The notes under the pieces: generated by a model
What the model was told of the DNA's origin: nothing
Databases searched by the model: none
The model's input: the letters and a program-made list of their open reading frames with translations, nothing else
DNA from: a virus
Taxonomy: Duplodnaviria > Heunggongvirae > Uroviricota > Caudoviricetes
IMG/VR virus record: IMGVR_UViG_2740892272_000004
Direction: 5' to 3' (one strand)
Length of the DNA stretch: 43,535 nt
Made by a program: the position numbers and the translations under genes
Part shown: positions 5,988-8,659 of the stretch, one piece after another
Position numbering within the stretch: position 1 is the first letter of the stretch
Layout: every line of letters starts with the position of its first letter

Positions 5988-6242
5988 TTACATCATGGTA
6001 CTGTCAGTTCCGGGCTGAGCCGGGTCTGGTTGCTCTGGCTGCGCGTCGGTTTTCGGCTCATTATCAGCATCACTGGCCGCAACTGCTGGCCCAATAAGTT
6101 TTGCCAGCACTTCATCAACGTAAGTGTCGATTTGTGCCTCAAAATCCTTGCGGACCTGCGCTTTCAGCAACTTATTTACTTCACCGGAATACAGTGCCTG
6201 TTTTACCAGGTCTTCAGTGACGGTGCCTTTAATTTCTGGCAT
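5988..6242 (-). CDS. Hypothetical small protein (84 aa) with acidic Pro-rich C-terminal tail
   Basis: ATG at 6242 preceded by a strong AAGGAGG Shine-Dalgarno 7 nt upstream. Confidence 0.5.
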   Translation of the reverse strand: MPEIKGTVTEDLVKQALYSGEVNKLLKAQVRKDFEAQIDTYVDEVLAKLIGPAVAASDADNEPKTDAQPEQPDPAQPGTDSTMM

Positions 6243-6277
6243 GTATATCCTCCTTATGCGGGAATAAAGCCCTGCAA

Positions 6278-6460
6278 TCAGGGCTGGGTCGGGTCTTTTG
6301 GGAGCGGAGTTACCTGCGCTGTTTTACTGAGTTTTTCAGCTGCTGCGTCCTCAATTTTGCGGCGAACATAATTTCTGATGGCCTTATAACCACCACTCAC
6401 CAGATATAACGCACATACTGCCGTGCAGAAATACAATAAAATAAGCTGTAAAAATGTCAT
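6278..6460 (-). CDS. Small predicted membrane protein (60 aa, one N-terminal hydrophobic helix)
   Basis: ATG at 6460 preceded by GGGAGGG; translation MTFLQLILLYFCTAVCALYLVSGGYKAIRNYVRRK... is hydrophobic then basic. The track start at 6472 is a TTG. Confidence 0.5.
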   Translation of the reverse strand: MTFLQLILLYFCTAVCALYLVSGGYKAIRNYVRRKIEDAAAEKLSKTAQVTPLPKDPTQP

Positions 6461-6556
6461 TATCCCTCCCAATTATTGACATGGTGTTGACACCGGTAAT
6501 ATCTGTTAGGTAAAAAGGTGCACTGCATTTTTTGCTTTGGATATAACGATCTTTTT

Positions 6557-6597
6557 GCCGCCGGTTTCTTGTTTTCCCTTACCGGCGGCATTTTTTT
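6557..6597 (+). terminator. Putative intrinsic terminator (GC stem GCCGCCGGT...ACCGGCGGC followed by TTTTTTT)
   Basis: Perfect 9-bp GC-rich inverted repeat with a 15-nt loop followed by a T7 run on the plus strand. Confidence 0.45.
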
Positions 6598-6604
6598 ATC
6601 CTGC

Positions 6605-8659
6605 TTACGCGTTATTCACTTCCACCACGATACTGTCAATCAGTACCGGGTAAGTCGCATTTTTAGTGATATCGGTCACGCGCAACTTGTCTGCCGTAAA
6701 CGTGCCGACCGGAGACTGCGACAGCATGAATGGTGTCCCGTCCTTACCATCAATGACCGGCGTCACCTCAATACTGTTGTTACCGGCAAAACGGAAGCCC
6801 AGCGTATGCCATTCGTTATTAAATGCGCCGAATGACCCCAGCTTCGTGTTCTGCGCCGTGTTTCCTTTGTGATACATCACGTTAAGGTCTGTGGCATCGC
6901 TCTGTACGTAGAACGATGCCAGCAGGTTATGACCGGCATTTCCTTCCAGAGTAACCCCTTGCGGCAGGGCAGAAACCGGCCAGTACAGCGCCAGTGCGTA
7001 CTGATTAGCCGTAAGCGCGCCATCGAGTTTAAAACGACAACTGACAAGACCACCTTTACCCAGCAGGTCCGCACCATTACCAGCATCATGCTCAAGGTAC
7101 CAGGGGGCTCTTCCTGTTTCCTTGGTCAGTTTCATTGCCTTACCCCCGCTGGCTCCGGCATCATCCACGATTTGAGCCTTGCCACCTCCGGCAGCCCAAC
7201 CCTGTGGTGTCAACCGTCCTTCAGACTCAGATGCCCGGTAAGCAAATAGCGTACTCATCGTCGTGGTGTCTGCGGGTGGCGTGGACGGTTTTGATGGTGT
7301 ATCAGGTGACGGCTTCTCATCCGGTGGTGTCACGGTCTGCCCACGCATCAGTTCAGCCGTGCGCCCTGCATGGAGCATAATAGCTGAGGCCAGACGGTCT
7401 GAAATGACGCCCCTGCGTGCCCATGAGCTGAAATGGCTGTCACGCTGTGTCGAAACAAAACTGCCCTGGGTTCGGGATGCTGCACCGTAATACCCGACAG
7501 CCACAATATCCGGGTCTTCCGCCGGAGCATTCGTTGGCGTGCTCTGTCCATTCTCATCCGTCAGGAACGGTACAAAGAAAATTTTCTGTGCTTCCTTGCC
7601 TTTGTAGCCACCGTATACTGCCTCATATTTATCGGTGCCAGCGTTTTTCCAGTAATACGTGGTATCACCGCAAATCCACGGCACCGTGGTGGCATTTCCA
7701 CTCACGCACTGCGCAGCAAGCGGAGCCAGGTCAGTTCTGAACTGCTGAACCATGGCCGTGAATAAACTATTATGCTGCTGGCTTCCTGAGGCAAGGTCTG
7801 CCTCTCCCTGCATCCAGACCACAGCCAGAAGTTTGTTTTTCGGGTTTTTCGCCAGCGCGACTTTGGTGCGGCTTACCAGGTCCTGATACAGAGGTTTACC
7901 GGCCCCCCAGCGTGAAGAATCAGCGGAAGCACCGCTGGCCTCACTGAATGAGCCGTCGGCTCCAGTGGTGAATGCTGACCCGCCACGACAACAGGGCACC
8001 AGAAGTATCCCGGCATTCTGTGGGATATAGGGAAGCAGTTTTTTGGCAATATGCAACCCCTGACCGACAGTCCCGTACTGGCCTTTTGCCAGATCAGCTT
8101 TCGGGTGGTTTATCCCGCTCATATCCTGAACATCATGCAGGCAGTGGTCTGCCGGAATGATGTCGTTGTATGTACACGACGTACCGTTGGGCGTTACCGT
8201 ACTGCGGCGTGCCAGTTGCTTAATGCGTGGGTCCGGGCGGTCAAACGAATCCGGTAACGGCAGCCCCTCGCCGTAGGCCATGCCATTTGACTGACCCGCG
8301 AGAATGACAACAAAGTAATATTCCGGCTCTGAACTGCTGCCATTCGTGCTACCGGAAGGCCCGGCGTTATCCGGTGCATTCCAGTCGGAGGGCGTGAGCG
8401 TTCCGGCCACGTCAGATGTGATTGGAATGATGCCAGTCACGCCTGAACTGGTGATTTCTGCACTGGGATTACCGGATACCGGCATTACCCATAATGGCTC
8501 TTTCGTGCTGAAGCGGATCACGCAGTCTGCGAAGGTGATCCCCCCTTTATTACCCGAAGGGCGGAAAGGGCTTTCAATAAATGCCACCGTGCCACCGGCA
8601 ACCTTGACTGAAAACTCTCCGGGCATGGCGGAGAGCATTTTCCACTTGGAGTCTGACAT
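6605..8659 (-). CDS. Multi-domain sialate-O-acetylesterase-like (SASA/SGNH hydrolase) protein, NanS-p-like: N-terminal region, esterase core, Pro/Thr-rich linker, C-terminal lectin-like beta domain
   Basis: Contains the GQSN catalytic-serine block (VILAGQSNGMAYGEG) and the W-x-Q-G-E-x-D block (VVWMQGEADLASG) typical of the sialic-acid-specific 9-O-acetylesterase family; linker PDEKPSPDTPSKPSTPPADTTT; 684 aa. Confidence 0.75.
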   Translation of the reverse strand: MSDSKWKMLSAMPGEFSVKVAGGTVAFIESPFRPSGNKGGITFADCVIRFSTKEPLWVMPVSGNPSAEITSSGVTGIIPITSDVAGTLTPSDWNAPDNAGPSGSTNGSSSEPEYYFVVILAGQSNGMAYGEGLPLPDSFDRPDPRIKQLARRSTVTPNGTSCTYNDIIPADHCLHDVQDMSGINHPKADLAKGQYGTVGQGLHIAKKLLPYIPQNAGILLVPCCRGGSAFTTGADGSFSEASGASADSSRWGAGKPLYQDLVSRTKVALAKNPKNKLLAVVWMQGEADLASGSQQHNSLFTAMVQQFRTDLAPLAAQCVSGNATTVPWICGDTTYYWKNAGTDKYEAVYGGYKGKEAQKIFFVPFLTDENGQSTPTNAPAEDPDIVAVGYYGAASRTQGSFVSTQRDSHFSSWARRGVISDRLASAIMLHAGRTAELMRGQTVTPPDEKPSPDTPSKPSTPPADTTTMSTLFAYRASESEGRLTPQGWAAGGGKAQIVDDAGASGGKAMKLTKETGRAPWYLEHDAGNGADLLGKGGLVSCRFKLDGALTANQYALALYWPVSALPQGVTLEGNAGHNLLASFYVQSDATDLNVMYHKGNTAQNTKLGSFGAFNNEWHTLGFRFAGNNSIEVTPVIDGKDGTPFMLSQSPVGTFTADKLRVTDITKNATYPVLIDSIVVEVNNA

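Follow-up and report, generated by a model that had tools for sequence, protein, structure and literature searches.

The stretch of DNA analysed here is the viral record IMGVR_UViG_2740892272_000004 of IMG/VR (43,535 nucleotides, hereafter the window). It holds a Mu-like transposable phage in which a gene for a NanS-p-type sialate O-acetylesterase and two small genes occupy the minus strand between the gin-type DNA invertase gene and the com-mom pair. In the following, we describe this locus, its relation to the nanS-p modules of lambdoid phages and the possible role of a distinct domain at the N-terminus of the esterase.

A nanS-p module between gin and com-mom

The genes of the locus and the domains of the esterase are as follows.

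6605..8659 (stop codon included), minus strand: gene of the 684-residue NanS-p-type sialate O-acetylesterase (open reading frame (ORF) list; Pfam, PHROGs and PDB matches)
8417..8659, minus strand: N-terminal domain, residues 1-81, a small domain predicted as six-stranded and all-beta, at the position of the lambdoid DUF1737
8324..8416, minus strand: linker 1, residues 82-112, rich in Ser, Gly, Pro and Thr, predicted to be disordered (predicted local distance difference test (pLDDT) <50)
7364..8323, minus strand: SASA/SGNH catalytic domain, residues 113-432 (PDB 3pt5 match over residues 110-428)
7256..7363, minus strand: linker 2, residues 433-468, rich in Pro, Thr and Ser (from the sequence, between the two PDB matches)
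6608..7255, minus strand: C-terminal lectin-like jelly-roll domain (DUF6645), residues 469-684 (PDB 6yp6; PF20350)
6278..6460, minus strand: DUF1378 gene, 60 residues, one transmembrane helix and a basic tail (PF07125, E 1.2e-31; phrog_494)
5988..6242, minus strand: DUF826 gene, 84 residues, acidic (PF05696, E 6e-16; phrog_311; isoelectric point (pI) 4.2)
8745..9317, minus strand: gin-type DNA invertase, upstream flank (Resolvase and HTH_7)
4379..5270, minus strand: com and mom, downstream flank (Zn_ribbon_Com; PF25680)

The original prediction had described this interval as non-Mu cargo of three ORFs between gin and com/mom, and both the ORFs, on the minus strand, and their flanks are found where it placed them. 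The module is absent from Mu and from a closer relative, the Muvirus Yersinia phage Tongde; there hin/gin is followed directly by com/mom, and the major capsid protein shares 90.8% identity with that of the window (22575-23522). Since only 94 base pairs (bp) separate the end of gin from com in Mu, about 3.4 kb are extra here, including a plus-strand ORF of 86 residues (5560-5820) that lies outside the esterase operon and is absent from the original prediction. The term cargo is thus justified in the sense of genes that are extra relative to Mu and Tongde, but not in the sense of a sporadic acquisition: in a widespread lineage of Mu-like prophages of E. coli and Shigella, it has become fixed. 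In each of the 34 IMG/VR loci with the N-terminal domain, the order is tail fibre, fibre assembly, gin (which some loci lack), esterase, DUF1378, DUF826, a variable slot, com and mom; in the variants without gin, the esterase directly follows the fibre-assembly gene. Among 5426 complete E. coli genomes about 230 carry the domain, 28 in the form found in the window and 205 in a form typical of O157, with O157:H7 among the carriers. The com-mom type of this lineage occurs in 226 complete E. coli genomes, which is about the same count. The chromosomal site of the prophage differs between strains, as expected of a transposable phage. When 50,697 phage records were searched with the esterase by tblastn, no Muvirus isolate was among the matches listed, and the sole Mu-like one among them (LC727881) belongs to a Mu-like element that sits inside an Stx phage.

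By homology, the 684-residue protein (about 72 kDa) is predicted to be a sialate 9-O-acetylesterase. Residues 110-428 match residues 16-331 of E. coli NanS/YjhS (PDB 3pt5, E 1.8e-117) and residues 469-683 correspond to the lectin-like domain at the C-terminus of NanS-p (PDB 6yp6, E 7e-98), while Pfam finds SASA (PF03629, E 1.5e-13) and DUF6645 (PF20350, E 7e-68). The SASA profile match and the Pro/Thr-rich linker had both been anticipated, as had the two hallmark blocks GQSN (residues 122-125, with S124) and WxQGExD (WMQGEAD, residues 282-288). Following the block definitions given for NanS-p (GQSN, G, QGE and RxSH; PMC10462455), we have located the complete set of SGNH blocks at GQSN 122-125, CCRGGS 223-228, WMQGE 282-286 (QGE at 284-286) and RDSH 406-409, and their residues are invariant in two alignments of homologues. 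Four aromatic residues of the phi24B protein have been proposed to bind carbohydrate (PMC10462455); their conserved counterparts here are Y554, Y559, Y584 and F654. The protein is 65% identical to L0105 of phage 933W over residues 94-683, and from about residue 94 to 684 it shares 87-91% identity with lambdoid alleles of 647 and 650 residues that carry DUF1737 (PF08410). The closest esterase entries are from Shigella sonnei. A full-length AlphaFold2 model was unusable (pLDDT 37.7, from a low-diversity alignment of 31 sequences), so the domain assignments rest on the matches to solved structures.

With respect to E. coli NanS, the catalytic domain aligns over its full length and has the same variant SGNH blocks. 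NanS differs in being a single-domain protein of about 326 residues, encoded in the nanCMS operon, with neither an N-terminal phage domain nor a C-terminal lectin domain. The chromosomal NanS carries an export signal; the esterase of the window has no signal peptide. The expected NanS-p architecture was therefore borne out for the catalytic and C-terminal domains, but the N-terminal domain is not the DUF1737 of the lambdoid proteins. The likeness to O-antigen deacetylases of phage tailspikes, which had also been suggested, found no specific support: the matches to tail proteins (phrog_25867, E 1e-6, and one phage record, H81) are weak and confined to the generic SASA domain.

Downstream of the esterase, the 60-residue protein starts at the ATG at 6460 (the longest ORF, from a TTG at 6472, would give 64 residues), has a pI of 9.3 and contains one hydrophobic helix (residues 3-21, mean Kyte-Doolittle value 2.27). 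Together with the acidity of the 84-residue protein and the Shine-Dalgarno sequences before both genes (GGGAGGG and AAGGAGG, respectively), these features agree with the first description of two small genes. They are, however, not independent additions, but the DUF1378 and DUF826 genes that follow nanS-p in lambdoid phages. The order esterase-DUF1378-DUF826 is also present in 933W, in Stx2_95 and in a non-Stx lambdoid prophage of E. coli O10:H32, and this identity of genes and order in three lambdoid phages indicates that the trio is one transplanted module of the lambdoid late region. In lambdoid phages, the trio is located between stx and the holin gene, with the small genes just before the latter. 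In the window they have been kept beside the esterase, 24 kb away from the lysis genes, which speaks for an association with the esterase and not with a lysis cassette and suggests that DUF1378 and DUF826 work together with the enzyme.

Domain exchange with lambdoid alleles

At the DNA level, the window shares 88.6% identity with the lambdoid allele of E. coli O10:H32 from position 8329 (about codon 111) to position 6402, inside the DUF1378 gene. The upstream boundary of this homology coincides with the end of linker 1 and the start of the SASA domain, leaving the N-terminal domain and its linker outside. The three parts of the protein also give incongruent identities when the window, the O157 Mu-like protein and 933W are compared, in the order window vs O157 Mu-like, window vs 933W and O157 Mu-like vs 933W:

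N-terminal domain: 63%, 19% (unrelated), 19% (unrelated)
SASA domain: 70%, 71%, 80%
C-terminal domain: 73%, 69%, 79%

In its SASA and C-terminal domains, the O157 Mu-like protein is thus nearer to 933W than to the window protein. Across the loci, identity amounts to 94-100% for com/mom, 58-100% for the catalytic part and 40-100% for the C-terminal domain. Because of the breakpoint and the incongruent identities, we conclude that lambdoid and Mu-like phages have traded the catalytic and lectin-like part, whereas the N-terminal domain remains tied to the phage type. In two contigs (L009, IMG/VR UViG_2617270951_000022, and L014), gin and a Mu-type esterase are joined to lambdoid-type DUF1378, holin, endolysin and terminase genes; these contigs are either products of Mu-like/lambdoid recombination through the body of nanS-p or assembly chimeras caused by the repeat.

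The N-terminal domain itself has few relatives. Residues 1 to about 95 match no Pfam family, DUF1737 (PF08410) included, and align with neither the 933W nor the Stx2_95 esterase, a forced alignment with 933W yielding the 19% identity given above. AlphaFold2 modelling of the domain (pLDDT 67-90 per block of ten residues over residues 1-80) predicts an all-beta fold, a generic small beta barrel as found in many carbohydrate-binding modules and cupins. A structural search with this predicted fold returned no significant neighbour and no match to known anchors or tailspike adaptors. In a HMMER scan of 1.84 billion representative proteins, the domain was seen only in fusion with SASA esterases, and the 34 IMG/VR loci as well as one Salmonella locus that carry it are all Mu-like. 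The Salmonella enterica homologue is only 30% identical and belongs to a divergent Mu-like prophage. There it has the same position, preceded by baseplate, fibre and invertible-segment genes, a resolvase gene and two small ORFs. Word-index homologue searches returned fragments only, and a scan of one genome per species gave no match.

Transcription and neighbourhood of the module

The signals around the esterase operon and the adjacent plus-strand ORF are located as follows.

8694..8736, minus strand: putative Mu-type late promoter of the esterase operon, TGAATTTCCGCAAAAC, 22 nucleotides, TATTCTG (motif)
6556..6590, minus strand: GC hairpin of 10 bp between the esterase and DUF1378 genes (-22.8 kcal/mol, z -4.5)
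5955..5982, minus strand: hairpin immediately behind the stop of DUF826, where the operon may end (-16.7 kcal/mol, z -2.9, without a distinct U-tract)
5560..5820, plus strand: ORF of 86 residues in the variable slot between DUF826 and com (patch of 36% GC)

The promoter motif lies within the 85 bp that separate gin from the esterase gene. It recurs with equal spacing upstream of the lysozyme gene (32848-32891) and of the head protease gene (24661-24704), and the pattern CCGCAAAN{22,23}TANNCTG has three matches where 0.01 are expected. In the O157-type Mu-like phage, a relaxed pattern matches exactly three sites, all of them orthologous, and none elsewhere in either phage; at its esterase site, the 22-nucleotide spacer is unrelated in sequence, with motif and spacing kept. 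As the motif matches those of the lysis and head operons, the esterase operon is probably a late operon. The phage also has a homologue of the late activator C of Mu (140 residues, 40% identity; 32889-33311), whose gene immediately precedes that of the lysozyme, an arrangement found in Mu as well. A further motif-like site with one mismatch (28554-28569, minus strand) falls inside a gene resembling that of the large terminase subunit, with no -10 element at the right distance, and was set aside as probably due to chance. A generic scan for sigma-70 promoters and terminators yielded nothing above the shuffled expectation.

The hairpin at 6556-6590, which closely follows the stop codon of the esterase gene, falls within the stretch of DNA shared with lambdoid phages. 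It has no U-tail in the sense direction and is flanked by A-runs; read in antisense, it would look like an intrinsic terminator (hairpin and T7). On the far side of the module, com retains its own Mu-like upstream region with GATC sites. The module has therefore gone in between gin and the control region of mom as a unit of its own. Upstream of com, at 5314-5338, a perfect palindrome containing two GATC sites, AATCGATCG-N7-CGATCGATT, is the counterpart of the Dam/OxyR control region at Pmom of Mu. The C-site that follows the palindrome in Mu, TTATGCCCCAATAA, is missing here, so the control of mom probably differs in detail.

The 86-residue ORF between DUF826 and com codes for an acidic protein that has no family in Pfam, PHROGs, NCBIfam or PADLOC. 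On its two sides lie a promoter-like site (5506-5535) and a hairpin resembling a terminator (5865-5879), with a low-GC patch at about 5250-5750, and is present in alleles of the window type, the remaining alleles having other sequence in this slot. It looks like a classical moron. A defence-system reading of the region was dropped, as nothing meaningful was found in NCBIfam or PADLOC for any of the four proteins.

Further observations concern the flanks and the remainder of the prophage. Outside the Mu-like end at about position 4371, the window codes for an IpaH-type NEL E3-ligase type III effector (301-2016, plus strand; LRR_TTSS and NEL), and for prophage tail-fibre remnants and a C-terminal fragment of an IS66 transposase (2196-3942 and 3996-4343, both minus strand). 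The IS66 fragment stops some 30 bp short of the Mu-like end, and the prophage seems to have inserted in or beside an IS66 element of a Shigella-like genome. On the other side of gin, an invertible tail-fibre segment (9330-11242) carries the C-terminal part of a fibre gene and an assembly gene on the plus strand. In several related prophages (E. coli M3, CI5), gin has mostly been lost, with about the last 29 codons left, so the fibre orientation is frozen in them. In an identical prophage, RefSeq annotates a 'tRNA-OTHER' (transfer RNA; L007, 21717-21796) at the equivalent of about 25341-25420 (plus strand), between the genes for the minor head protein and for virion morphogenesis (G); ARAGORN finds no tRNA anywhere in the window.

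Proposed function and its alternatives

NanS-p enzymes have been shown to act on 5-N-acetyl-9-O-acetylneuraminic acid (Neu5,9Ac2) and on mucin, lambdoid NanS-p has been shown to support growth of lysogens on Neu5,9Ac2, and lambdoid nanS-p is strongly induced along with the late genes (PMC8065619). We consider it likely that the protein of the window is a late-expressed esterase of this type, released at lysis and possibly present on particles, that removes O-acetyl groups from the sialic acids of mucin. The lambdoid nanS-p/DUF1378/DUF826 module would reside in the Mu-like prophage as a separate late transcription unit, probably transcribed in the lytic cycle only, with the homologue of Mu C as the likely activator. 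Its substrate would be the O-acetylated sialic acids on glycans of gut mucin, reached only upon cell lysis, as the esterase lacks a signal peptide; deacetylation would then let sibling lysogens that survive make use of Neu5,9Ac2. The substrate, the late timing and the release upon lysis are in this model all deduced rather than observed.

The N-terminal domain leads to a more tentative proposal. The NanS-p of phi24B, gp84, is a capsid decoration protein whose DUF1737 plugs the central pore of the hexon as a hexamer (bioRxiv 10.64898/2026.04.10.717836). By analogy, the domain that takes the place of DUF1737 in the window may be a phage-type-specific adaptor tying the esterase to the head or tail of the Mu-like particle, which we regard as conceivable but still somewhat short of an even chance. 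The fuller version, that these roughly 80 residues form a new virion anchor, by which the Mu-like lineage of E. coli, Shigella and Salmonella displays an esterase/lectin for mucin sialic acids with DUF1378 and DUF826 as dedicated helpers rather than lysis-cassette genes, is a possibility to be held with reserve.

Several points weigh against late expression and particle attachment. The promoter pattern was defined post hoc from its own three sites, and in the O157-type phage only the esterase site is semi-independent, because the other two are close to those of the window by descent (adjacent genes are 96-98% identical). Moreover, the likeness of the motif to the Mu late-promoter sequence is loose, and its spacing is different; the late promoters of the Mu lysis operon and of its head protease (gene I) have a related CCCGCAC element at a different spacing. 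A hairpin followed by T6 lies 3' of gin, and as it is weak, some read-through from gin is possible, which would allow for low expression in lysogens. The N-terminal domain has no paralogue among the structural genes of the phage (none with E <0.28 in a search of the window), and the idea that it is an adaptor shared with the tail fibres was dropped for this reason.

The alternative that survives best is a purely soluble enzyme, acting as a public good or in lysogenic conversion, whose N-terminal domain would be a second carbohydrate-binding module or serve solubility or oligomerisation, its restriction to Mu-like phages reflecting descent only. It overlaps with our proposal on all but the anchoring and is a real possibility, though less likely than not. 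It agrees with the established role of lambdoid NanS-p in the growth of lysogens, with the generic nature of the small beta barrel and with the lack of similarity between this domain and the structural proteins of the phage. Yet the sharp breakpoint and the incongruent phylogenies point to selection that binds the N-terminal domain to the phage type and leaves the rest free to be exchanged, the lambdoid domain at this very position is a proven capsid anchor, and the putative promoter is of a late type common to the structural and lysis operons.

Attachment could also serve a different purpose. A tail-mounted, receptor-modifying deacetylase might act on a bacterial polysaccharide (O-antigen, K1 polysialic acid or similar) and aid adsorption in the manner of G7C gp63.1, a possibility raised for NanS-p in a review (PMC8065619). 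The gene indeed directly follows the block of tail-fibre, fibre-assembly and invertase genes, or the fibre-assembly gene itself where gin is missing, and SASA domains do occur in some tail proteins. We nevertheless consider this improbable, given a catalytic domain that is very near to the dedicated sialate esterase NanS, the high identity to lambdoid alleles from phages with quite different tails, and matches to tail proteins that are limited to the generic catalytic core. Unlike in tailspikes of the G7C gp63.1 type, the window protein's N-terminal domain has neither a paralogue in the window nor a structural match resembling an adaptor. That the module is functionless DNA left behind by recombination with a lambdoid prophage, as the chimeric contigs might hint unless they are artefacts of assembly, is highly unlikely in view of three ORFs that are intact in alleles differing in up to 40-60% of their protein sequence, invariant catalytic residues, retention in some 230 complete genomes and in a divergent Salmonella phage, and a conserved putative promoter of its own.

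The proposed late-expressed, possibly particle-bound esterase can be placed among known systems. With the lambdoid NanS-p proteins (933W L0105/z1466; phi24B vb_24B_21/gp84), it shares the SASA and DUF6645 domains, Pro/Ser/Thr-rich linkers, the lack of a signal peptide, DUF1378 and then DUF826 downstream and, by inference, the late-gene status. It differs in its host, a Mu-like transposable myovirus, in the beta domain of about 80 residues that replaces DUF1737, in its putative late promoter of the Mu C type instead of a Q-antiterminated pR', and in lying between gin and com/mom, where the lambdoid genes lie between stx and the holin gene. With capsid decoration proteins such as T4 Hoc and phi24B gp84 it would have in common an anchor domain, a flexible linker and outward carbohydrate-active domains, although for the window the anchor role is a proposed one; the DUF1737 anchor of phi24B gp84 consists of a helix and three strands, whereas the domain of the window is all-beta and unrelated in sequence and predicted fold. 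Like phage morons, the module is extra relative to Mu and Tongde, lies between two conserved genes, and has a putative promoter of its own, a terminal hairpin and an adjacent low-GC ORF on the opposite strand; unlike in them, this promoter is of a late type rather than one expressed constitutively in the lysogen, and it is fixed in a whole lineage. The enzyme family, the C-terminal domain and the gene trio are already known and the genes are annotated in RefSeq. We have found no paper on nanS-p in Mu-like phages or Sp18, though an earlier mention may exist in Saile 2016 or Rangel 2016; within this same limit, the residence in a Mu-like phage, the replacement of the N-terminal domain, the breakpoint at a domain junction and the putative Mu-type late promoter appear to be undescribed. 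A new kind of system is not revealed.

In summary, work on NanS-p has been confined to prophages of the Stx and other lambdoid types, where it is a fitness factor for growth on the O-acetylated sialic acids of mucin. In the Mu-like lineage the same module has been kept, with what appears to be its own late promoter and with only the capsid-anchor domain replaced, and thus constitutes a natural experiment on protein parts. The result predicts a new particle-binding domain and speaks for a functional link of DUF1378 and DUF826 to the esterase, and strains of O157:H7 have one more nanS-p copy than counts restricted to lambdoid prophages give. If the tentative anchoring model holds, each of the two phage types, lambdoid and Mu-like, would on its own have fixed the same exchangeable 'glycan head' to its particles via interchangeable adaptor domains, and the phages with an esterase/lectin on the particle surface would include the Mu-like prophage of O157:H7.

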